Assembly (NCBI GenBank): GCA_045631585.1
Contig: JAZQUX010000190.1
Span: 1-50,546, forward strand
Source: Eubacteriales bacterium
GTDB taxonomy: Bacteria > Bacillota > Clostridia > Oscillospirales > CAG-272
Length of the DNA stretch: 50,546 nucleotides
Direction: 5' to 3'
Shown in pieces: positions 5,265 through 34,921 of the stretch (its first letter is position 1; each line of letters starts with the position of its first letter). Position numbers and translations under genes: made by a program. The notes under the pieces were generated by a model. The model ran no database searches. It saw nothing but the letters and a program-made list of their open reading frames with translations, and was not told the DNA's origin.

Positions 5265-5653
5265 TCCGCACCGCCTTTCAACGCCCTTTCAGCATCCTCA
5301 CGGGAGAGGAATACTGTTTTGCCGATAAGCAAATCTATCCTATTCCTTATTTCTGTTTTGCCATACCACAACTCATTGCTAACAACCGTTATCCACTCTT
5401 TCGGCGTAGTATATAAATTATATTCGAAGTGTGTTATGATTCCACTTACAACGCTATCAGATGTGCGGTCAACGATATACACAGCATCCCCCGCCTTGCA
5501 AGGCAACAGCACAACCCCGTTCTCAAGCAGGTAGTCGGCAATAAACTCTGCACCCCTTGGAGAATCTATGAGAGAATCTATATCGCCACACACAGCATTA
5601 AGGATTTGCTGTATTTCTGCTTGCTTCAACAGCTTAATCAACCTCTCACGCAT
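5261..5653 (-). CDS. Hypothetical protein (130 aa)
   Basis: ATG at 5653 with GGAAGGTG RBS. The track start at 5662 is GTG. Confidence 0.65.
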   Translation of the reverse strand: MRERLIKLLKQAEIQQILNAVCGDIDSLIDSPRGAEFIADYLLENGVVLLPCKAGDAVYIVDRTSDSVVSGIITHFEYNLYTTPKEWITVVSNELWYGKTEIRNRIDLLIGKTVFLSREDAERALKGGAE

Positions 5654-6338
5654 TGTCAGCACCTTCCTTCTCCGTCATTTCTCCGCCCCATTGTTCTGCC
5701 ATTGCTTGTGCTATGCCCTCAAAGGTCTTGCTTGCATCCTTTGCATTATGTGCCACGCCTCTGCTACCTCCTCGCCCTTTTGCAAAGCCTCCCGTATTGC
5801 TTGGCAAAAACGGCTTATATTCGTTCAAAATGTTTGTAGGAATTAACTTCGGTAACCCTTTCAGCCACAACAATGTGCGTTTGGAAAAAGGATGCCCAAA
5901 TTGATACGGCTGAATTACTTGAGATTTTTTAGGCAAGCCTACAACCTTTAAAGGTGTCGGATTTTCAACACAAATTCTTTCACAATCAGCTTCAAGAAAA
6001 GTCATAAAAAATTCTTTCGCCTTCGAAGCCATCTCAAGCCTTTCTTGGTTAATATTGCCTGCCGTTAAATACATAAACCTCGCCCCTGCTTTGCTCATAT
6101 ATGTACACGGCGGATGAGCAATAATCATATCCCATCTTCCGTCAATGGTATGCTTTGCTCCGTCCATCGTCACAAATTCGCATCCGCCATTGATAAGCGG
6201 TATAACATCTTGCATTATATGCCATTCGGGATGCCCACCCGAGCATTCAATAATGTCACAAGAATATGCTTCGTGTCCTTTCGCACGAAAAGCCTTGCAT
6301 ACCGCTTGGCTCTCTTCACAAGCTACAAGTACTCTCAT
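5646..6338 (-). CDS. Short DNA cytosine-C5 methyltransferase-like protein (230 aa)
   Basis: PC motif IIAHPPCTYMS and ENV-like motif VENPTP. Non-canonical N-terminal motif I region (VLVACEESQAV). Confidence 0.65.
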   Translation of the reverse strand: MRVLVACEESQAVCKAFRAKGHEAYSCDIIECSGGHPEWHIMQDVIPLINGGCEFVTMDGAKHTIDGRWDMIIAHPPCTYMSKAGARFMYLTAGNINQERLEMASKAKEFFMTFLEADCERICVENPTPLKVVGLPKKSQVIQPYQFGHPFSKRTLLWLKGLPKLIPTNILNEYKPFLPSNTGGFAKGRGGSRGVAHNAKDASKTFEGIAQAMAEQWGGEMTEKEGADNA

Positions 6339-6745: not shown

Positions 6746-6963
6746 ACAATCTCCACCTCGCATTCATCAGACACAAGCCAATTAAGTGACACAAGACTTT
6801 TTTCCGCTCTGCTAACCGTCCGCTTATCCTCGGGTATCTTAATCAGCCTATATTCGGTAAAATAATACACATTATCCGTCTTTTGATTCTTTAAGCGGAA
6901 TCGCTGATACTTCTTCAATTTGAGTCTGTGCCTTATCAGGAATACAATAAGTCTCTTAATCAT
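6742..6963 (-). CDS. Basic hypothetical protein (73 aa)
   Basis: ATG at 6963 overlaps the methyltransferase stop by 8 nt. Its own stop overlaps the next ATG (ATGA). Confidence 0.45.
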   Translation of the reverse strand: MIKRLIVFLIRHRLKLKKYQRFRLKNQKTDNVYYFTEYRLIKIPEDKRTVSRAEKSLVSLNWLVSDECEVEIV

Positions 6964-8614
6964 TCTTTTCACCATCCTTAACACATCGAATCAGATGCCG
7001 TATGGTCTCGATTGTCCACCCATTCCCGAGCAACTTATAAGCCTGTGTATCCGACACCGGGAATTCATACCATTCAGGTACTGTCTGCAACCGCATACAC
7101 TCTCTGACCGTCAGCTTGCGGATGATATAGAATCCGTCAACAAGCTTTATCGGATACTCCTTGCCCTTGATGGTAATCTTGCCGTCCTTGACTTCGTAAA
7201 CGATATACACCTTGCCATCCGCACAGGACACCGCCTTGATAGGTTTTCCGTCTTCGTCCCATTCACACGGTGTAGCATAGCCACATCTCATCGGCTCATC
7301 AATCTGTATGGCATACAACCCTGTTTTACCACCTGCGCCACCGCCACCGCTTGTCAGATTAACAGACTTGCCCTCGACATCATAGACTCTAAAAGCCTGA
7401 CTATTCCTTATCTCTCCATCAGGCGAAGGCATACAACCTACACGAACAGGCTCTGCTACGCCCGTTGCAGAATGCCCACCGTTTGTTATAAAATTCGCCA
7501 TTCCTTGCTTTGCATAGCTCGCTTTTATAGTGTGAGCAAATCCATCCACAGTAACATTGACAGGCTCGGCAACATAATCAAACACCTGCTTGTTCGGATT
7601 GTCGGGGAAAGCATCGCAAGCCAAACTTCCTTCACCACTACCTTTGTGAGCATAGCTTGCACTAATTGGTCTCGATTTGTCTTCCACTCCGTATTCGGGA
7701 ATCCTTACAGTCTCTGCCACCCCCGAAGCCCCATAAGTTGAAGTGTAACAGCATATATTTGCTATGCTTGTCTGCTGATATTGTGCTTTTATCGTTTGAG
7801 ACTTTCCGTCTTTGGTAAGATTGACAGGCTCTGCTACACTCTGCTTACCCATAAAACCGCTTGTCGCAATATCCATACATCTGTCTCGCTGTGAGCAAGC
7901 AACATAACCGCTCGTCAAAGTCCTCGATTTATCTCGTCCCATAGGGCAGACAGGCTCTGCCACAGCAAGCCGTTGCCCGCTTTGCTTTTGAAGACTTGTA
8001 AAATTTCCGCCCTTAAAATAGTTGGCATCTATACAACCTTGTTTATCTCGCCACGCATATCCGCCTTCCAACACATCCCTCAACAAAATCCCTCTGTCCT
8101 CCGGCTGCGGCACATCCACCTTTGAATAAGTCCCATCCACATTCCTGCGACCAACCCAATACAGCCTCTGTCTGTTCTGTGCTGACACTAATGCCGAATT
8201 AATGCATATCGGCTCAAACCCAAACGCATCGGAAATACTCTCCCGAATCGCCTTTGACATAGACTTGTTATTTTCGTAAATAAACCACTTCGGCTTCGCT
8301 TCCTTCAATGCTCTTACATACTGACAGAACAGTTCCCAACCAAGTCCACTTGCTTCGGTCTCCCTGTTATTCTTCTGTGCAATGCTCCAATATGTACAAG
8401 GACTACCGCCTATCAGCCAATCAAATCCCTCGAACTCGGTAAAATTACCATCAAACACATCGCCCCTCTGCTCAATATCGGGAAAGTTATGTACCGCTGT
8501 CTTAACGGCATAGCCATCAATTTCATACGCCACATATCTGTCTATCGGAATGTCCTCAAGCATCATCGCAATATGCCCACAAGCCATCCCATCATATAAG
8601 CTTAATATATTCAT
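6956..8614 (-). CDS. DNA cytosine-C5 methyltransferase with five tandem TRD-like modules (552 aa)
   Basis: Motif I LSLYDGMACG, motif IV GGSPCTYWS, motif VI ENNKSM, motif VIII QNRQR, motifs IX/X RKLTVRECMRLQTVP...LLGNGW. Between VIII and IX there are five repeats beginning [VA]AE[PT]V at aa 218, 260, 299, 348 and 386, most followed by K-S-x-T-[LI]-type TRD signatures. Confidence 0.85.
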   Translation of the reverse strand: MNILSLYDGMACGHIAMMLEDIPIDRYVAYEIDGYAVKTAVHNFPDIEQRGDVFDGNFTEFEGFDWLIGGSPCTYWSIAQKNNRETEASGLGWELFCQYVRALKEAKPKWFIYENNKSMSKAIRESISDAFGFEPICINSALVSAQNRQRLYWVGRRNVDGTYSKVDVPQPEDRGILLRDVLEGGYAWRDKQGCIDANYFKGGNFTSLQKQSGQRLAVAEPVCPMGRDKSRTLTSGYVACSQRDRCMDIATSGFMGKQSVAEPVNLTKDGKSQTIKAQYQQTSIANICCYTSTYGASGVAETVRIPEYGVEDKSRPISASYAHKGSGEGSLACDAFPDNPNKQVFDYVAEPVNVTVDGFAHTIKASYAKQGMANFITNGGHSATGVAEPVRVGCMPSPDGEIRNSQAFRVYDVEGKSVNLTSGGGGAGGKTGLYAIQIDEPMRCGYATPCEWDEDGKPIKAVSCADGKVYIVYEVKDGKITIKGKEYPIKLVDGFYIIRKLTVRECMRLQTVPEWYEFPVSDTQAYKLLGNGWTIETIRHLIRCVKDGEKND

Positions 8615-29500: not shown

Positions 29501-32500
29501 ATATGTATCCTTGTTATTCTTATGCTCGCTCGGATAAATATTCTTGCTGACTTTCTTCCTTGCATTTTCGCTTGAAAGGTTAAGGCTGTCAACATATGCA
29601 TCCCAAAGATTCTTATCAGCTATCGTGTCACCCGACTCACTTGTGTAATTAAGCCACTTGTAATACTCGGCAACATCCGTACCCGTTCTTACAATGTGGA
29701 ACGGAATTATAACATCCGACCATTCCTGCTCGCCTGCCCATCTCAAAGCCTCATCATTGGTAACTGTCGCAACTATACCCACATTCGGATATTTCTTACG
29801 AAGCTCAACAGCCTTTTCAAAATTCGCAGATTGCTTTTCATCAATAAAGAAGTTCCCGTTTGCATCCTGATTGACAAATACGGAGACATTGATGTTCATT
29901 CCCGTAGAAGCAAATATCTCAACAAAATCGGTGTCTTTTGTGTATGCCAAGCCTTTAAGACCACGAATTGAAGCATCCGTTATCTGCTGCATATTCTCTA
30001 CGATAAATGCCGCAGAGTAATCGCTGAAGGAATACCATCTCAAGCCATAATGTTCGTTAAGGTTTTTAACCACTCTGTCCCCGAGCTTCAGAATCTCATC
30101 ACGATATGCAACATAGTTTTTCTGAATCTTTGACCACGAAGCACTCTGTGCATATTTTCTCGCATCCGCAAGCTGTTCTGCAAGAATACCACCCTTTGCC
30201 TTAATGTCACTCTGACGTTCTTCCGTAGCAATGTCCGCAAGGGATAAAAGCTGTGTGCCGTTGTCAACAGCCGAAATCCACTTGTCGAATCTCGACTTCA
30301 TTTCCTTTGTGTCTTTTCTGCCGCGAAGGAATTCTTCATATAACTTCTTTATGCTTTCGGCACTCTTGTCGCTGTTGTTATACTTCGCAATTACAGTATC
30401 CCTTTCGGTCATATAACGAAGAAGCATATCATTGAATGCTTTTCTGTCAAGTGATACATAACAGTACAAACATTGAGGCTCTGTGGCTATGTCGTAAAGC
30501 TTCTGCGACACAAGGAAAGATTCCATCTGTGTCAAAGGTCTTCCTATCTCTTCCTGCACCTTGTCAACAAATTCGTTGTACGCAAGCGTTCTTACACAAA
30601 TTGTGGTATTCTCAACCGAGCGGTCGTAAGAGCCGTTCTTTGTAAGCACCTTGCCGATTTTATCTTCGGGAAGAATCTCGGAATACTTCATCATCACATC
30701 AACCATAGCTCGGGTTACTTCTTGAGCATCCTTAAGCTCAGCCTCTGTAATGCTTGACTTGTTATTGCGAATATATTCCAATTCTCCTTTTGCAATATCA
30801 TCGTTGTGAGTTAGAGAATATCTTGTATCAAGTTCGTTGCTTGTGATTCTTTCTGCATCAATTTCCGCAAGTGCTTTTTTTGTATTTGTATCGGCTGTTT
30901 TTTCTGCAGAATCCTTTCCGTCAACCTTACCCTTAATAGCCCCTTCAAAGTCCCTAATAACCTTATCAAACTCATTGACAAACGCATCCTTCGAGTTGAA
31001 CGCTTTCTTTATGCCGTTTGCCATCTTTCTAAGGAACGAAAGAATAATATTTGCATCATTAGTTTCAAGCTTTCCTGCAAACATTTCAAGAAGCTCCGTG
31101 CTACCCATAGTCTCGCACATAAGGTCAGCCGCTATCTCGCTCTCAATATACTCATTTGAAAGTGTTCTCGGTTTTCTTCCTTCTGACTCGGCAATAGCAT
31201 TTTCGTGACTCTGATAACGCTCTCTGTATGCCTCATACTGTTTCTCATTGTATATGCCCATTTCGGCAAACACCTTGAGAGCTCTCTGTGCAATGCCCGG
31301 TGCTTTAGATTCCGCTTCGTGGAAAAGCTCGTGAGAAAGTACCCAAAACGCGCTCTGTTCACCCGAAAGCATCGAGCCGTTAAGAGTAATGGTTGTCTTT
31401 CCGCCTTTTGCTGTCCAATCCCCTCGAACAGCACCATCGGAGTTATCGTAATAAACAGATATTGAAACGTCAACGCCCGAAGCCTTAAATGCCTTTTCTA
31501 TGCTCTTTGCATACACTTCAACAGCATAGTTTCTGTTATCGTTGCTGAACTCATTACTCTCAAACATATCCGCAACAGATACGGCAGAGTTTTCGCCCTT
31601 AATCACATTACCAAGATACTCAAGTGCTTCAAGAGTTGAGTTATCTCCTCTTGCTTTTGCTGTTGCTATCTCTGTAGAAATGCCGTTGATTACTTTCTGA
31701 ATAACGGAGCCTCCACCCGAAATGGAAGTTGCAAATCTTCTGAAAAGCGATTTCGCTCTTGAACGAACAAGGCTTTCCGCTGTGATACCGAGCTTCTTTG
31801 CCATATTTCCGATTGCTCTGTATCTCTGTTCCTCGTTCTTGAAGTCGTAGTCGGAATACTTCTGTGCGGCTTGCTGAAGTGCCTTGTTGTTGCTTTCCTT
31901 TGCTTTTTTGATAACCTCATTGGTGTAATCCGCCTCGGAAACAGCCTTGCCTACAGCAAGAGTATCACCCTTTACCGCTTTGGCAACGGAGGTTGTATTC
32001 GTTTTAACAGAGCCACCTATTTTTTGGTCTCTTATTACCTGATCGATTTTTTCCTTGCCGACACTTTCGATTTTTGTTGTAGCATTTGTTACGGCTTCTT
32101 CAATCGTATTACCACTTCCGAATTCAAGCCCGCTCGACTTTTCAACGATGCTGAAGGTTTTCTTGCCATCTATGTTATTTTCTGCGGCATAAAGGTCATA
32201 TCCGAAATCATTGTCGATATGAACGCCCTTGCTTTTTACAAGCTTGTTCTTATATCTGCGGATAATATCAACCTCGTTTGACCTCTTCACGACTTCCGTT
32301 GTGTTTGCTTCCTTTACCTCATTGTTTGCATCAAGGATGGCTTCATTTATGGTGCTTTCCATATCACCGTTTTGTTCCGCACCTTCTTCGCTCTGCATAG
32401 GAACTTTTACATCTATGCTTTCTGTTTCTCCGACATCAATTTTTTCATCGGCAGAGTCATTGAGTATTCCCGAAAAGAGCATCTGAACATCAAATCCGTC

Positions 32501-34921
32501 AAGACCTTCTCCACTCGCAACAGCCTTTTCTATTTCAAGTGCAATCTTCTTTGTTTCGGGGTTGGTGCTTTCCTTACCGAGTCTCACAAGCTCATTGATA
32601 TTGATACCGCCTGCAATGAGCTTTTCACCGTCTCTTCTCACATCGGCTTCGCTGATTCCTGCGTAGTTGAAAAGACCTCTCGCTCCACCGAGAGCCATAC
32701 CGCTTATATAAGAAACAACAGCCGTGTTGAGACCATTCTTTATAAGGATTTGCATCATACCCGAGCCTACATCAACAGCCTTGCCGTCAACAACAAGTTT
32801 TCTCGCCTGCTGATACAGTTCGCTTTCTTCTCCGTTGAGGGCATAGTCGGAAATGTATCTTACGGCATCGTTTGTGAGTTCTCCGAGTACCTCGTTAGAA
32901 CCTGAAAGTCTTGCCGCCTTCACCATTCTCTTGAAGTGGTTAGGGTTAAATCTCGTCATATCGAGAGCCTTGTTAAGCGCTCCTAATTCGATTTTTTCTG
33001 TTAAGCCCTCGGAGAATGCCGTAACAGTAGACATTATAGCGTTCTTTGTCGGGTCTGAATAAGCATCGACTCCGCTCTTGTATTCCGTAGCGAAGCTCTG
33101 TGCAAACATCATTGCCGCACCGCCAAACACACCAAGCGGAGACCTTGCAAGGTTTTCGGCAATACTGTTCGTAAGCCCGTATATACCGCTGCCCCAAGCC
33201 TCTGCATTTTTTCTGTCCATACCGAGGAATTCAAGCACATCTGCGTTCTGCGCTGTACCAATTTCCGCTCTGCCCTTGTCAACGCCCGATTTTACCGAAG
33301 AGAGCTGTCCGTATCCTAAATGAGTCTTGTATGTAGGAAGCTCCGACTTCTCGATATTTGAGACTATCGCAGAGCCTATGGATTCACCCGCACTCGGAAG
33401 TGAAAGAGCATACGAAGCCATAAAGCCTCCAACACCTGCACCAACCTTGTCTAAGAAACTTCCGTTTTCTACAATGTTGTTGTACCATTTCGCAACAGCT
33501 TCTTCTGCTCCGAAATTAAAACGGGGTTTCAAAATTCCGAGGTAATACGACTCCCACGAATTATCGCCTGCGTTGTACATAATACCAAGGCGTACCAAGT
33601 CTGTGTTGGTAAGCTTCGCTGTCGGGCTTATTCGACCAACCGCTTTCTGCAAGTCGTTGATATCGCATTCGCCTTTTTCGGCTTTTTTATACAACTCATC
33701 ATTTGTGTAATTGGTAGCAACCGCAGAAGTGCTTTCACCGTAATTATATGCATCAAGGTTTGAAAGTTCTTCGTAATTTCTTTTGATGACATCCTTTACG
33801 ATTTCCGAAATAGTCTTGTTATCGGGAAGCTCGCCTTCTCCGTCATACCAAGCCTTTCCGTACTTATCTTTGTACTTTGCAAGTTCCCACTCCCTTGTGA
33901 CATAGTAATCAGTTTCGGCTTTCTTACTTTCCGCTTCGGAGCGTATCATTTCAAGCTCGGCTTTTCTCTTGATAGCCGCTTCCTCTTCGGGAGTATAAGT
34001 ATATCCGTAAGTTACATTTGCTCTTACGCCCTTTTGGTCAACGTTTCCGAGATTCATCGAAGAGCTTCTTTTCTGATTTGCATTGTTTACGATGGAAGAA
34101 ACCGCTTCGTACTCAGCCTGAAGTTCGGGAGTCCAAATCGAGTCATACATAATATTCGAGAGCTTTGCTGACTCTTTCTCAATCTCATCCTCGGAGAGCA
34201 TTCCTGCGTACATGGTGATTAATCCAACCCCGTTTTCCTTGAAGAACTTCGGTGCTTTGGTTGCCATCGATTCAAGGTCTGCAAAAGCAGATTGTCGAGC
34301 CTTGTTTCCACCGCTTTCCTTTCCGAAAGAATCGACATTGTGATAGAACGACCTTGTTGTCTCAACCCCGGTTGCATAATCGTCATCACCCATCTTTATC
34401 TGCTCATCGATATAACCCTTATTCTTGTTATAGTCCCTCGGTGAAAGCGATTTGTACTGATTGGTGTATTCTGTAGCCCGTTCATCATACACCGCAAGTT
34501 CTTCCGCTGTAGCACCATTCTTCTGAGCTTCTCTTCTGTCCTCGGAATTTGTCTTGATTAAGCCGAGAAGGTTGTTCTGCTTCTGCTGAAAGCCTGCCTG
34601 AGCCGCAGTTGTTGTTTTGGTATTGCCACTCGCATCCGTGACAGTAACCTCTCTTTCGGGGTTGACGGGTCCCATTCCAAGTGCAATTGCGTGACCGGGT
34701 TTGTTTCTGTTCTCCCATTCCTGACGACCCTCATCGAGAATTGTGTCAGTATACGCAACCTTTGCCTTGCTACGGGATTCCTCTTTTTCTTTTTCTTCTT
34801 TGGTTTTTTCTTTCTTCGTAGTAGGCTTGATGTACTCCTCTTTGGTGTACTTCGCTTCGAGTTCCTCTTTAGTGGAGTTCATCATATCTTTGATTACGGG
34901 GTTTTTCTTTTTGAAAGCCAT
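23588..34921 (-). CDS. Giant multidomain (polyvalent-type) late protein, 3,777 aa
   Basis: Single uninterrupted ORF with AAGGAGGG RBS. HELFH at aa 1197-1201, GHEGRHR at aa 2289-2295, FYHGT at aa 2423-2427 with GYDGIKITN at aa 2657, Gly-rich hydrophobic block from aa 493, TM-like helix near aa 3226. The function of most of the protein is unknown. Confidence 0.85.
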   Translation of the reverse strand: MAFKKKNPVIKDMMNSTKEELEAKYTKEEYIKPTTKKEKTKEEKEKEESRSKAKVAYTDTILDEGRQEWENRNKPGHAIALGMGPVNPEREVTVTDASGNTKTTTAAQAGFQQKQNNLLGLIKTNSEDRREAQKNGATAEELAVYDERATEYTNQYKSLSPRDYNKNKGYIDEQIKMGDDDYATGVETTRSFYHNVDSFGKESGGNKARQSAFADLESMATKAPKFFKENGVGLITMYAGMLSEDEIEKESAKLSNIMYDSIWTPELQAEYEAVSSIVNNANQKRSSSMNLGNVDQKGVRANVTYGYTYTPEEEAAIKRKAELEMIRSEAESKKAETDYYVTREWELAKYKDKYGKAWYDGEGELPDNKTISEIVKDVIKRNYEELSNLDAYNYGESTSAVATNYTNDELYKKAEKGECDINDLQKAVGRISPTAKLTNTDLVRLGIMYNAGDNSWESYYLGILKPRFNFGAEEAVAKWYNNIVENGSFLDKVGAGVGGFMASYALSLPSAGESIGSAIVSNIEKSELPTYKTHLGYGQLSSVKSGVDKGRAEIGTAQNADVLEFLGMDRKNAEAWGSGIYGLTNSIAENLARSPLGVFGGAAMMFAQSFATEYKSGVDAYSDPTKNAIMSTVTAFSEGLTEKIELGALNKALDMTRFNPNHFKRMVKAARLSGSNEVLGELTNDAVRYISDYALNGEESELYQQARKLVVDGKAVDVGSGMMQILIKNGLNTAVVSYISGMALGGARGLFNYAGISEADVRRDGEKLIAGGININELVRLGKESTNPETKKIALEIEKAVASGEGLDGFDVQMLFSGILNDSADEKIDVGETESIDVKVPMQSEEGAEQNGDMESTINEAILDANNEVKEANTTEVVKRSNEVDIIRRYKNKLVKSKGVHIDNDFGYDLYAAENNIDGKKTFSIVEKSSGLEFGSGNTIEEAVTNATTKIESVGKEKIDQVIRDQKIGGSVKTNTTSVAKAVKGDTLAVGKAVSEADYTNEVIKKAKESNNKALQQAAQKYSDYDFKNEEQRYRAIGNMAKKLGITAESLVRSRAKSLFRRFATSISGGGSVIQKVINGISTEIATAKARGDNSTLEALEYLGNVIKGENSAVSVADMFESNEFSNDNRNYAVEVYAKSIEKAFKASGVDVSISVYYDNSDGAVRGDWTAKGGKTTITLNGSMLSGEQSAFWVLSHELFHEAESKAPGIAQRALKVFAEMGIYNEKQYEAYRERYQSHENAIAESEGRKPRTLSNEYIESEIAADLMCETMGSTELLEMFAGKLETNDANIILSFLRKMANGIKKAFNSKDAFVNEFDKVIRDFEGAIKGKVDGKDSAEKTADTNTKKALAEIDAERITSNELDTRYSLTHNDDIAKGELEYIRNNKSSITEAELKDAQEVTRAMVDVMMKYSEILPEDKIGKVLTKNGSYDRSVENTTICVRTLAYNEFVDKVQEEIGRPLTQMESFLVSQKLYDIATEPQCLYCYVSLDRKAFNDMLLRYMTERDTVIAKYNNSDKSAESIKKLYEEFLRGRKDTKEMKSRFDKWISAVDNGTQLLSLADIATEERQSDIKAKGGILAEQLADARKYAQSASWSKIQKNYVAYRDEILKLGDRVVKNLNEHYGLRWYSFSDYSAAFIVENMQQITDASIRGLKGLAYTKDTDFVEIFASTGMNINVSVFVNQDANGNFFIDEKQSANFEKAVELRKKYPNVGIVATVTNDEALRWAGEQEWSDVIIPFHIVRTGTDVAEYYKWLNYTSESGDTIADKNLWDAYVDSLNLSSENARKKVSKNIYPSEHKNNKDTYLSLCESRGLSPRFVRFAGEAWYMKLVNETRLSADESSPLKPEYNLDAAKDSFQKFIDKGGYEGGWYKEGVDVEGEVKTVARDVLAGKKANEVEYGRQDGYNPEEIAANRKKNRVHEGDKKYALQGVDKVDNEGDKFTYDALISLPDMEVTKVSDKIPKKEDGKLDRAKVKFDAMNNAFSVGEKANSSLALVENKYTSKKIAVRPSAIGHGLDRRTNVAVVSGKIGELLQNAVSVNEMSSRSNVAYVNKSYPMVAIASDETGAKYAVLLIVNDVEGKIPELVDLSVSEVLYSVNAKKEESAVHSTRGHTSAQNAEYSLTDSNISISEVLSFVKDYFPDVLSNDVLSRFGMAKSGDSKYENVRYALSSFNKEGLTETEIENAKTVIDGLKTRAMASKYLDGYASYTSERMERELKASSSSDVIDYAKSYITWVEPTDFVYATTTSSESRQQLKEEAGTLDLEKLRNQEQPIHLTVDFETGEIVGHEGRHRMLALQKAGVDKVAVVIDALNDDRHHTKPIEFMSLKGQRFGEYRKGTDMYLHDALPLSQRYADVARGLFTTETKSGVRYSLPGNNKLDTEYLEIAKNPEQNKAKLQEIVDEAAIEWGCDVGKNGKPVRFYHGTNNFGFTTIDVAKSDDGISFFATDDLEVARTYVSNSTKVDTEVRKIGKKGEADTTKQGQAEKNEYTKTVNNVSAKRDRMLEFINKKLGEKSQDDVLGISGIIADRIRSIENGETGFSEEIKTHEAFERAYRDFVKRYTEHKHGKAYSWEEHIDTDEGIKLREEWSDYEIGIRADLSTLHSPRGNKGIYEMYGKTDGFLEIDAMGDRWDNIWTADGGKLKTRDVAKLAKEQGYDGIKITNLLDDGGQGHKRQTKPATVYIFLNPAEQMKSADPVTYDDEGNVIPISERFSEKGDIRWALSDNGNMSLEDAWNEKIEKYGAIPKGMNPARDVKVPKRISDNKYVSRTARSAIESGLTPEEFVSEFQKDILDGKFTYERFTDEKAEQKAKELIEYHGFEDALRHWDFIAHSGGAISKENFAFGIELYNQCAQNGDFKNAEKILADISAEATIAGQAIQAMSMLKKMSPDGTLYYLERSIDKINDELVAKFGEKRAKKVKIDEDLANRYFAEKDAAKREELYKELCKDIGEQIPSTFWEKEDAWRYLSMLFNPTTHMRNFAGNILNLIVTKINNTIEGAIQPIFIKQEDRTKTLKWADKKTAEFAKNDWELMKDMLTSGEGKYGNIVSDIDKYRRILRPTKNAGKVTKVVGNALGFAPEMLNKFNSWALEKEDELFLGVSYRSALKKIITARKLDVDNISSEELSKIRELAIKEAKRATFREANALAEAISRTRAKLMKGNLGEKVGGIALGGLFPFTKTPMNITKQSLETSPLGVFKTAYDVVEKSRGKAVSGNDIIADVARTFTGTGLFILGAVLARAGVVSAGDDEDKDKKRFDKLVGEQSYAINFRDGKSYTMDWATPASIPFLVGAQFYKTIEEEGLNFKAFADSIGAITEPVIGLSMLDGLRDFLESDNYSDNGAPTAAIESILSNFILQHFPTLGGKIKRIASPQKKNYYFINKNSETPEFVQELYGSIASKLPFEVGNYQASVDLWGRIENYGGVGERLAENLISPGYYSEDNYTDVDNEILRLYESTGNGDVFPKKMYEDITISGNTYYMNAEQYKDAAVMLGERRFDMLSRLFNDEIVLKNQDTVYSEMTDSEKSSIVMNVYKQALDETKYAMLDVVKGNAESSAEATAIQIVKSKEDEANSINKGNPTGVNGVTYVYWKQKNNFIEQAQKAIADGDKKNAEGFEKDLEKRAEKYDGTLSRGEELIAEMYDKTQNDDLFYTKAESYILQQTSDGIKEKKPMSYHDYSGMMKSMNDASEYVALAVFGNNFDKAKASKIKSSSSNMTKYINAGVTATNAYKRSLANKVRSGEMTQDDADVLYYKELISKIKSEIRADYKEDYFGKTK

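Follow-up and report, generated by a model that had tools for sequence, protein, structure and literature searches.

A putative multispecific cytosine methyltransferase with an exchangeable module array in a temperate phage of gut Clostridia

Can a single phage methyltransferase that carries a row of repeated units methylate several unrelated DNA sites? This question is raised by a gene on a contig of 50,546 nucleotides from a Eubacteriales bacterium (JAZQUX010000190.1, analyzed over its full length and hereafter called the window). Knowledge of multispecific cytosine methyltransferases goes back to the 1980s and is not known to extend beyond a handful of Bacillus phage enzymes. In the literature searchable since 2010, the term was rare and in part appeared just in reference lists. 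A sequence-only reading of the window had proposed a C5-cytosine methyltransferase of 552 aa with five tandem units resembling target-recognition domains (TRDs), like those of the phages SPR, phi3T and rho11s. The open reading frame and its family matches bore out the enzyme itself (Table 1), and we sought evidence on what its repeated units do.

The same contig carries genes for an integrase, a terminase, a portal protein, a major head protein, RecT and a primase-helicase. The methyltransferase gene sits in the early/replication module of this temperate phage, and the arrangement is alike in nine homologous contigs. No recognisable endonuclease partner was found near the gene, and the situation was similar in those nine contigs. 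A restriction-modification pair was therefore rejected, and the contig gene content is that of a temperate phage without a recognisable cognate endonuclease, a Pfam scan confined to three small flanking ORFs among the small neighbours having given no match. An ORF of 230 aa resembling a methyltransferase had no match in PADLOC.

The 552-aa protein matches PF00145 (E=3.3e-35) and passes the cut-off of TIGR00675 (dcm; 102.2 bits against 100.65). It also matches HaeIII, DNMT3A/B and HhaI in the PDB. The C5-methyltransferase motifs I, IV (Pro-Cys), VI (ENV), VIII (QxRxR), IX and X (GNxV) are all intact and in canonical order, those of the N-terminal core reading LSLYDGMACG (I), GGSPC73TYWS (IV), YE114NNKSM (VI) and Q146NRQR (VIII). 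Alignment with M.HaeIII confirmed that QNRQR (146-150) and RKLTVRECMRLQ (499-510) are motifs VIII and IX, as the sequence-only reading had assigned them. Across 70 homologues, the residues P72, C73, E114, N115, Q146, R148, R150, E505 and N531 show no variation. The N-terminal core was modelled by AlphaFold2 with a pLDDT of about 90, and the top Foldseek matches to it were the catalytic domains of DNMT3A/B (E about 1e-13, 25-31% identity), which were also its best PDB match by sequence (E about 4e-14). DNMT3 enzymes have a short CpG-specific TRD and form oligomers with regulatory domains, whereas the module array has no counterpart there. Judged by its motifs, the protein is a C5-cytosine DNA methyltransferase and is predicted to be catalytically competent.

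Table 1. Features of the methyltransferase gene, with coordinates in the window
Feature	Coordinates	Strand	Basis
Whole gene, 552-aa orphan C5-cytosine DNA methyltransferase	6956..8614	-	ORF, PF00145, TIGR00675, PDB matches
N-terminal catalytic core, aa 1-185	8060..8614	-	Aligned to HaeIII and DNMT3A
Type-0a segment, aa 186-217 (YAWRDKQGCIDANYFKGGNFTSLQKQSGQRLA)	7964..8059	-	First-position element in homologues
Module 1, class S9, aa 218-259: VAEPVCPMGRDKSRTLTSGYVACSQRDRCMDIATSGFMGKQS	7838..7963	-	Class in 9/117 homologues
Module 2, class S1, aa 260-298: VAEPVNLTKDGKSQTIKAQYQQTSIANICCYTSTYGASG	7721..7837	-	Class in 41/117 homologues
Module 3, class C1, aa 299-347: VAETVRIPEYGVEDKSRPISASYAHKGSGEGSLACDAFPDNPNKQVFDY	7574..7720	-	Class in 36/117 homologues
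Module 4, class S2, aa 348-385: VAEPVNVTVDGFAHTIKASYAKQGMANFITNGGHSATG	7460..7573	-	Class in 20/117 homologues
Module 5, class E1, aa 386-436: VAEPVRVG...SQAFRVY..GKSVNLTSGGGGAGGKTGLYAI	7307..7459	-	Class in 106/117 homologues
Family-specific beta-rich domain, aa 437-498 (..EWDEDGKPIKAVSCADGKVYIVYEVKDGKITIKGKEYPIKLVDGFYII)	7121..7306	-	In 115/119 homologues
C-terminal core, aa 499-552: motif IX RKLTVRECMRLQ, motif X GNGW, stop codon	6956..7120	-	Aligned to HaeIII residues 262-321

Five units led by the pentapeptide [VA]AE[PT]V (aa 218, 260, 299, 348 and 386) had been described between motifs VIII and IX, in the interval 7325..7972, which corresponds to aa 215-430. All were found at these residues, together with the reported signatures DKSRTLTSG, GKSQTIKAQ, DKSRPISAS, FAHTIKAS and GKSVNLTSG. 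They form a tandem, non-overlapping array of five homologous TRD-sized units (38-51 aa) that spans aa 218-436. Each follows a common frame, with a V-A-E-P-V strand, the element K-S-x-T-[LI]-x-A-x-Y and a class-specific tail of 13-25 residues. In 100,000 shuffles of the protein the pentapeptide matched 0.0025 times on average and once at most. Similarity between units, measured against shuffles, reached z=18.9 for units 2 and 4 and z=6.9 for units 1 and 2, the other pairs giving z=1.5-4.4. At the level of family profiles, the unit-3 type aligns with the short type across the first 25 positions of each (hhalign probability 90%, E=1.4e-6). That the repeat could be an accident of composition or an artefact of assembly or annotation, functionally meaningless, has next to no probability: it is refuted by five matches where 0.0025 are expected and by the recurrence of window-type modules in hundreds of independent metagenomic proteins. 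The short module is present in 274 clusters at 50% identity, and the methyltransferase family as a whole numbers more than 8000 clusters at 90% identity.

The five units are not all of one kind. All are homologous and share the leading pentapeptide, but unit 5 is longer, of HhaI type and unlike units 1-4. Ahead of module 1 lies the type-0a segment, which 34 of 119 homologues share, always as the first element. At aa 190-205 (DKQGCIDANYFKGGN) it carries a frame like K-x-x-[TC]-[IL]-x-A-x-Y, with a weak in-register match to the short-module profile. It is possibly a hinge or a degenerate sixth module.

To what extent do these units behave as independent elements? We compared 117 close homologues, which are the top matches to one query and phylogenetically non-independent. 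Among them, at least 25 module classes occur in 112 distinct architectures, so that almost every protein of the family has its own combination, and many pairs of classes are seen in both orders. In nine relatives the core shares 92-94% identity with that of the window protein, and each of them has a different module set. Natural variation thus shows the units to be exchangeable, in their order and on near-identical cores. Pairs of the same class within one protein are depleted, with 6 observed against 31.5 expected and none of 5,000 shuffles as low, as would be expected if each class gives a different function. The combinatorial assortment and the non-redundancy within proteins that independent specificity modules predict were thus both seen among the 117 relatives. 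Median identity was 67-73% for the module classes and 78% for the core. Such conservation, about like that of the core, argues against junk or pseudo-domains. Module number was overstated in one respect: five had been placed at the upper end of what is described, which does not apply within this family, where the median is 4 (range 2-7 in the 117 proteins) and some members have about ten.

Position is not free of bias. E1 usually lies near the C-terminal end of the array, E2, K, J and L come after E1, and S, C and F lie mostly before it, although the preference is weak and class S1 occupies several positions, before and after E1. Module 2 identity, measured against the window copy, shows no correlation with that of the core (r=0.10), as in homologue P0023, whose core is 77% and whose module 2 is 95% identical. 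This decoupling was found for module 2 only. A transfer of module 1 independent of the core (95% against 78%) was considered and rejected, since its identity tracks that of the core (r=0.99). A module-aware alignment built from fragments was dropped because MAFFT piled the fragments on one V-A-E-P-V joint and misplaced 119 of 141.

Do the units also look like recognition domains? A profile of 20 E-type modules, searched against all PDB sequences, matched residues 234-265 of M.HhaI (E=2.7e-4), an enzyme of specificity GCGC with a single TRD. The matched HhaI stretch (KGGQGERIYSTRGIAITLSAYGGGIFAKTGGY) includes the TL dipeptide and GGG..KTG.Y as well as Gln237 and Arg240, and module 5 carries the HhaI features in order: the loop 1 Q-x-x-R-[IV]-Y, a TL-type element and G-G-G-x-x-x-K-T-G-x-Y. 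It also aligns with TRD1 of M.Phi3TI (VREPLMVG..KRVYSPEGLSPTLTTMGGG), an enzyme whose multispecificity is experimentally established. By its sequence, module 5 is a full HhaI-type target-recognition core. In modules 1-4, by contrast, no HhaI-type loop 1 (Q..R.Y), and so no two-loop organisation, was found, and they have no HhaI counterpart. Profiles of the short modules and of the C type gave no match in the PDB even at E<=10. Aligned with module 5, the short modules share the TL-frame alone, and weakly (hhalign probability 23%). The roles of the recognition loops of M.HhaI are described in PMC2790894, and among the C5-methyltransferases studied there, changes in loop 1 inactivated the enzyme in every case. 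Structure prediction was of little help in judging module folds. The AlphaFold2 model of the full protein (70-sequence alignment) gave a pLDDT below 50 over the variable region 176-431, too low for this purpose. When aa 386-552 (E1, the beta-domain and the C-terminal core) were modelled with 30 contiguous homologues, E1 reached a pLDDT of 33-54 and the beta-domain one of 78-81, and a Foldseek search with this model returned nothing at E below 1.

These results bear on the possibility that the enzyme is effectively mono- or bispecific, with module 5 alone reading DNA and the short modules serving as accessories, whether as spacers, as hairpins that bind DNA non-specifically and increase affinity or processivity, or as a silent reservoir of pseudo-TRDs. 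Of the five, module 5 alone combines the two recognition loops with a counterpart in the PDB, E1 is present in 106 of the 117 homologues, and the short modules lack loop 1 and any structural match. According to work reportedly from the Trautner laboratory, inactive pseudo-TRDs exist in Bacillus phage enzymes. On the other hand, 11 of the 117 homologues do without E1, their core being intact and accompanied by other modules, as in P0070 (S9-C1) and P0024. Neither the avoidance of same-class duplicates, nor a module identity of 62-95% across diverged backbones, nor the turnover of whole cassettes between near-identical cores would be expected of spacers. We consider this reading unlikely, and infer that modules 1-4 may each be a functional TRD.

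The beta-rich insert noted ahead of motif IX proved real. It occurs in nearly all homologues (Table 1), with 24 invariant columns, and is predicted to form beta-strands (AlphaFold2 pLDDT 78-92). Neither by sequence profile nor by fold did it have a significant match in the PDB, and it is missing from the muut and phi3T enzymes described below.

The likeness to the enzymes of SPR, phi3T and rho11s was upheld for architecture and for the alignment of unit 5 with TRD1 of M.Phi3TI, but not for descent. The Bacillus phage enzymes (M.SPRI, M.Phi3TI, M.SPBetaI, M.Rho11sI and M.H2I) are likewise orphan methyltransferases of temperate phages. As in the window enzyme, there is a single core in which the stretch from motif VIII to motif IX is expanded by tandem units of some 40-50 aa, each with a lead of the form E-P-hydrophobic and with a T-[LIV] element. 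Their tandem TRDs confer multiple specificities (PMC8936443). The core of the window enzyme is DNMT3-like, whereas theirs is HaeIII/SPR-like, and in a BLASTP comparison it shared 25% identity with M.Phi3TI (E=5e-10), which places it in a separate lineage rather than in close kinship. The window family further differs in having more modules per enzyme, a strictly conserved V-A-E-P-V joint, the additional conserved beta-domain ahead of motif IX, a far larger repertoire of modules (at least 25 classes), mostly without an element like loop 1, and uncultured gut Clostridia instead of Bacillus as hosts. By this comparison, the window enzyme is predicted to work like the multispecific enzymes of SPR and phi3T, but to belong to another lineage.

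Other known systems share single traits. M.BssHII, or M.(phi)BssHII, is a prophage-associated multispecific C5-methyltransferase with reportedly five specificities, so that five modules have a precedent. Going by a paper title, the TRDs of M.(phi)BssHII lie at separated locations, in contrast to the contiguous array of the window enzyme; the M.BssHII papers are cited in PMC4081073 and PMC8936443. The enzyme of Escherichia phage muut (NCBI accession number: QHR65876.1, 330 aa) belongs to the same core family (MKVLSLFDGM.., QNRQRLYW, YRKLTVKEC..LQ, GNGWT). It carries a type-0a segment (DKAYCIDANYAKGGN) and one F-type module, both used in the window family, but these one or two elements stand without a V-A-E-P-V array and without the beta-domain.

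Taken as a whole, we think it rather likely that the enzyme is an orphan, phage-encoded multispecific C5-cytosine DNA methyltransferase with an anti-restriction role. Since relatives differ in module sets and orders, it is predicted to methylate several DNA sites and so to escape host restriction. One DNMT3-like, SAM-dependent catalytic domain, with Cys73 as the nucleophile, would serve an array of alternative recognition modules, in which the K-S-x-T-[LI]-x-A-x-Y frame may be the counterpart of the conserved 'TL' element of C5-methyltransferase TRDs. The modules would dock singly beside the catalytic domain on DNA, each reading its own short sequence. Several unrelated sites of the phage genome could thereby be methylated by one enzyme and the genome protected from several host restriction enzymes; we infer the anti-restriction role in this sense. 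As the array evolves, whole modules would be gained, lost or exchanged at the V-A-E-P-V joints, and close phages would therefore bear differing sets.

The modules could instead act jointly, with several touching DNA together to read a long or composite site, or with the array giving a relaxed, near-non-specific cytosine methylation. The weak positional preferences of the module classes are in line with joint action, and the conserved beta-domain could be a shared platform. A cooperative single domain would be hard to keep, however, with 112 architectures in 117 proteins and pairs in both orders, and with a non-specific enzyme the phage would have no need to avoid C-containing palindromes as strongly as it does. 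We regard joint action as quite improbable.

Restriction-type palindromes are avoided to an extreme degree in the phage genome, a sign of strong restriction pressure that speaks for the proposed anti-restriction enzyme. The sites GGCC, CCGG, CGCG and CCWGG are still avoided, so the enzyme evidently leaves them uncovered. This heavy reliance on site avoidance is a further point in favour of mono- or bispecificity. In 52 phage loci, each 12 kb or longer, we also tested for association between the observed/expected ratio (O/E) of palindromes and module class. Nothing survived correction for multiple testing (208 and 154 tests), and the avoidance signal across these loci was dominated by host clade, many sites being avoided in low-GC phages but not in high-GC ones. 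Two weak leads before correction were a lack of AGCT avoidance in loci with S1 (p=0.039) and a lack of GCGC avoidance in loci with F (p=0.012). In the E1-bearing phages L029, L030, L032 and L066, GCGC is nearly absent (O/E 0.03-0.08), and E1 therefore probably does not protect GCGC.

If multispecific, the family would represent a second, independent and far more diverse lineage of multispecific-type methyltransferases, in phages of gut Clostridia. Provided that the modules are functional TRDs, it would document a rapid arms race of gut phages with the restriction systems of their hosts, serve as a natural experiment on the specification of a DNA sequence by about 40 residues, and yield portable parts with which targeted or multiplexed 5mC methylation could be engineered. 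The linking of phages to hosts by 5mC patterns in metagenomes would be affected as well. A more tentative extension, which we hold to be possible though on balance doubtful, is that the family is a natural cassette system. The V-A-E-P-V joint would be the recombination point at which TRD cassettes of about 40 aa are exchanged among gut phages over short evolutionary times, and the short cassettes would be minimal DNA readers without loop 1, mounted on the beta-domain. This would provide a ready-made library of at least 25 portable specificity modules. At the nucleotide level the joint is partly conserved: the window contains GCAGAGCCTGT repeatedly, and CCT encodes the Pro at 78% of V-A-E-P-V joints, compared with 31% elsewhere.

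The C5-cytosine methyltransferase gene of the window lies in the replication module of a temperate phage contig that also encodes an integrase, a large terminase, a portal and a major head protein, together with a RecT-like protein, an exonuclease and a DUF927 primase-helicase. It adjoins small ORFs, of which the three scanned had no Pfam hits, no endonuclease-like partner was found beside it, and the gene context was comparable in nine homologous contigs. Relatives in genome collections were nearly all uncultured gut MAGs from humans and ruminants, mostly Clostridia (Oscillospiraceae, Acutalibacteraceae, Ruminococcus). About 600 bp downstream of the main gene lies a second putative DNA methyltransferase of 230 aa with a HPPCTYMS motif, which matched PHROG 757 "DNA methyltransferase" (E=1.3e-48) and had no significant match in Pfam, NCBIfam, PADLOC or PDB.

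Positions of the features discussed, in the window and in related phage contigs (L-numbers)
Feature	Sequence	Position	Strand	Remark
C5-methyltransferase ORF, 552 aa	window	6956..8614	-	holds all five units
Repeat region as first delimited	window	7325..7972		aa 215-430 of the methyltransferase
Module joints	window	7459-7975		
Beta-domain, aa 437-498	window	7121-7306	-	conserved, ahead of motif IX
Second putative DNA methyltransferase, 230 aa	window	5646-6338	-	
Giant ORF, 3777 aa	window	23588-34921	-	structural region
Lactamase_B-type gene	L029	10631-11338		
Lactamase_B-type gene	L030	15542-16255		
Lactamase_B-type gene	L036	4542-5249		

The window methyltransferase matched PF00145 (Pfam, E=3.3e-35) and scored above the cut-off of TIGR00675 (NCBIfam). 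Alignment with M.HaeIII placed QNRQR on QDRKR (motif VIII) and RKLTVRECMRLQ on RRLTVRECARVQ (motif IX). Motifs I (LSLYDGMACG), IV (GGSPC73TYWS), VI (YE114NN) and X (GNGW) were all found, and did not vary among 70 aligned homologues. In sequence (E ~4e-14) as well as in predicted fold (Foldseek E ~1e-13), the closest match to the N-terminal core was the catalytic domain of DNMT3A/B; identity to the core of M.Phi3TI was only ~25%. Four homologues (P0164, P0171, P0135, P0121) carry an insertion of ~400 aa exactly within motif IV (GGSPC | ... VHN | CTYWS), whose C...HN-C edges suggest a candidate intein splitting the active-site loop.

Five units opening with [VA]AE[PT]V had been proposed for this enzyme, and the pentapeptide is indeed present at aa 218, 260, 299, 348 and 386, as is every one of the K-S-x-T-[LI] signatures quoted with it. 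Shuffling the protein 100,000 times gave a mean of 0.0025 occurrences of the pentapeptide and at most one in any shuffle. Pairwise alignment scores, compared with shuffles, showed very strong similarity between units 2 and 4 (z=18.9), clear similarity between units 1 and 2 (z=6.9) and modest similarity in the remaining pairs (z=1.5-4.4). Profiles of the unit-3-type and short-type families aligned over their first 25 positions (hhalign probability 90%, E=1.4e-6), and at the level of sequence these family profiles settle the homology of the units. The repeat is therefore confirmed by position, shuffles, pairwise scores and profile alignment. An artefact is excluded. The units share a frame of ~25 residues, V-A-E-P-V ... 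[DG]-K-S-x-[TP]-[LI]-x-A-x-Y, followed in each by a class-specific tail of 13-25 residues. Ahead of unit 1, the segment at aa 190-205 (DKQGCIDANYFKGGN) is a possible sixth copy of this frame, in degenerate form; since the enzyme of Escherichia phage muut (330 aa) has it too, the segment may instead belong to the scaffold.

Unit 5 (aa 386-436) is of a different kind from units 1-4. A profile of 20 modules of its type, searched against all PDB sequences, matched M.HhaI residues 234-265 (E=2.7e-4), a stretch that holds loop 1 (Gln237, Arg240), the TL dipeptide and loop 2 with GGG..KTG.Y, the DNA-reading parts of target-recognition domains (TRDs) in C5-methyltransferases (PMC2790894). It also aligned with the first TRD of M.Phi3TI from phage phi3T (VREPLMVG..AIKRVYSPEGLSPTLTTMGGG). 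The leading strand and a TL-type frame are retained in units 1-4, which lack the Q..R.Y segment of loop 1; their profiles gave zero PDB matches even at E<=10, and their TL-frame showed only a weak alignment to the unit 5 frame (E=8.9e-4, probability 23%). Unit 5, hereafter class E1, could thus be the sole working TRD, the short modules being accessory or silent. We consider this unlikely: E1 is absent from 11 of 117 homologues, and the short modules are both conserved and non-redundant and are exchanged whole.

The comparison of homologues gave the main result. More than 8000 relatives of the window protein were found at E<=1e-5, nearly all metagenomic; the best 120 are 401-962 aa long, and the variable regions of 117 usable ones were classified against 29 seed modules. 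In this set, drawn from the best hits of a single search and phylogenetically non-independent, we counted 112 distinct architectures and, apart from four first-position "0" types, at least 25 module classes, which depend on the threshold used (>=40% identity over >=65% of the seed). The window architecture, 0a-S9-S1-C1-S2-E1 (0a being the pre-module segment), was unique. Module boundaries fall on the V-A-E-P-V joint, and many class pairs occurred in both orders. Nine proteins (P0002, 3, 5, 6, 7, 8, 10, 11, 17) have cores 92-94% identical to that of the window, yet the module set differs in each, so modules turn over far more quickly than the core diverges. For module 2, identity to homologous modules was independent of core identity (r=0.10), as in P0023, with a core 77% and a module 2 95% identical to the window's. 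Same-class pairs within a protein were strongly depleted: 6 were found where 31.5 were expected, a value as low as this arose in none of 5000 label shuffles, and with E1 counted too there were 9 against 71.8. Median conservation was about equal in module classes (67-73%) and catalytic core (78%). The short-module profile had only 274 matches at E<=0.001 among 1.84 billion representative proteins; those inspected were mostly relatives or fragments of this enzyme family, and two were unrelated repetitive proteins.

Five modules had also been placed at the upper end of what is described. The count proved ordinary: the median of the 117 proteins is 4 (range 2 to 7), about a third have five or more, and some representatives have about ten (e.g., P0126, 802 aa). 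The window gene is an ordinary member of a module-shuffling methyltransferase family, and the sequence-only reading of its repeats as TRDs appears largely right in kind. Judged from sequence comparison, the combined pattern is what independent, non-redundant specificity modules would predict, and one that would be hard to obtain from spacers or a single cooperative domain. We favour, with moderate confidence, a multispecific orphan methyltransferase that protects phage DNA: alternative modules would dock singly beside one catalytic domain, the short site of each docked module would be methylated, and together the modules would shield the phage from several host restriction enzymes. That the modules read DNA cooperatively, or non-specifically, seems improbable, since module order is shuffled and the phage genome itself avoids sites.

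The joint is also partly conserved in nucleotide sequence: GCAGAGCCTGT is shared by three of the window's five joints, and 78% of joint Pro codons are CCT, compared with 31% at other positions of these genes (18 joints from 11 genes, a small and related sample). Eight relatives of 770-960 aa (P0009, P0012, P0014, P0015, P0020, P0025, P0067, P0102) have motif VIII/IX patterns near residues 160 and 265 and module joints further on (520-730); they resemble a small C5-methyltransferase fused to a multi-module one, and their module classes are chiefly M, N, J and E3.

The beta-rich insert reported before motif IX was borne out, being conserved in 115 of 119 homologues with 24 invariant columns and predicted as beta-structure (pLDDT ~80-90). 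Sequence and fold comparisons detected no relatives, and the muut and phi3T enzymes lack it. Our guess is that it serves as a shared platform or non-specific DNA clamp for the modules. The window enzyme resembles the multispecific C5-methyltransferases of Bacillus phages in architecture and predicted function; in the latter, tandem TRDs confer several specificities (PMC8936443; primary papers cited there and PMC4081073). It does not share their descent, because the window core belongs to a DNMT3-like clade, and the window family differs in its invariant V-A-E-P-V joint, its additional beta-domain, its short modules without loop 1 and the size of its module repertoire. We found no account of this family in the literature; since 2010 the term "multispecific" was applied to methyltransferases in only seven papers, and in those examined it stood in reference lists only, citing Bacillus phage and M.BssHII work.

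Restriction-type palindromes are extremely scarce across window positions 1-50546 (observed/expected counts: GATC 3/186, GGCC 2/102, CTAG 0/34, CATG 19/192, CGCG 10/74, CCGG 41/184, ACGT 33/112, GCGC 42/85); CCWGG does not occur, and AGCT, GTAC, TGCA and TCGA are near expectation (O/E 0.66-0.94). This avoidance, which is similar in low-GC relatives and missing in high-GC relatives, shows that restriction pressure on the phage is strong, and suggests that the window enzyme does not cover the avoided sites; non-avoided cytosine-containing sites are, conjecturally, candidate targets. Across 52 phage loci, each 12 kb or longer, no correlation between module class and site avoidance survived multiple testing, and host clade dominated the signal. 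GCGC is almost missing from several E1-bearing phages (O/E 0.03-0.08); therefore, despite its HhaI-like loops, E1 is probably not GCGC-specific.

Elsewhere in these phages, L030 and L034 carry ORFs of 3240-3940 aa with MuF_C and ART-PolyVal domains, at a place comparable to the giant ORF of the window. The Lactamase_B-type genes of L029, L030 and L036 lie a few kb from the methyltransferase; their Pfam hits to anti-Pycsar Apyc1 are weak to unmarked.
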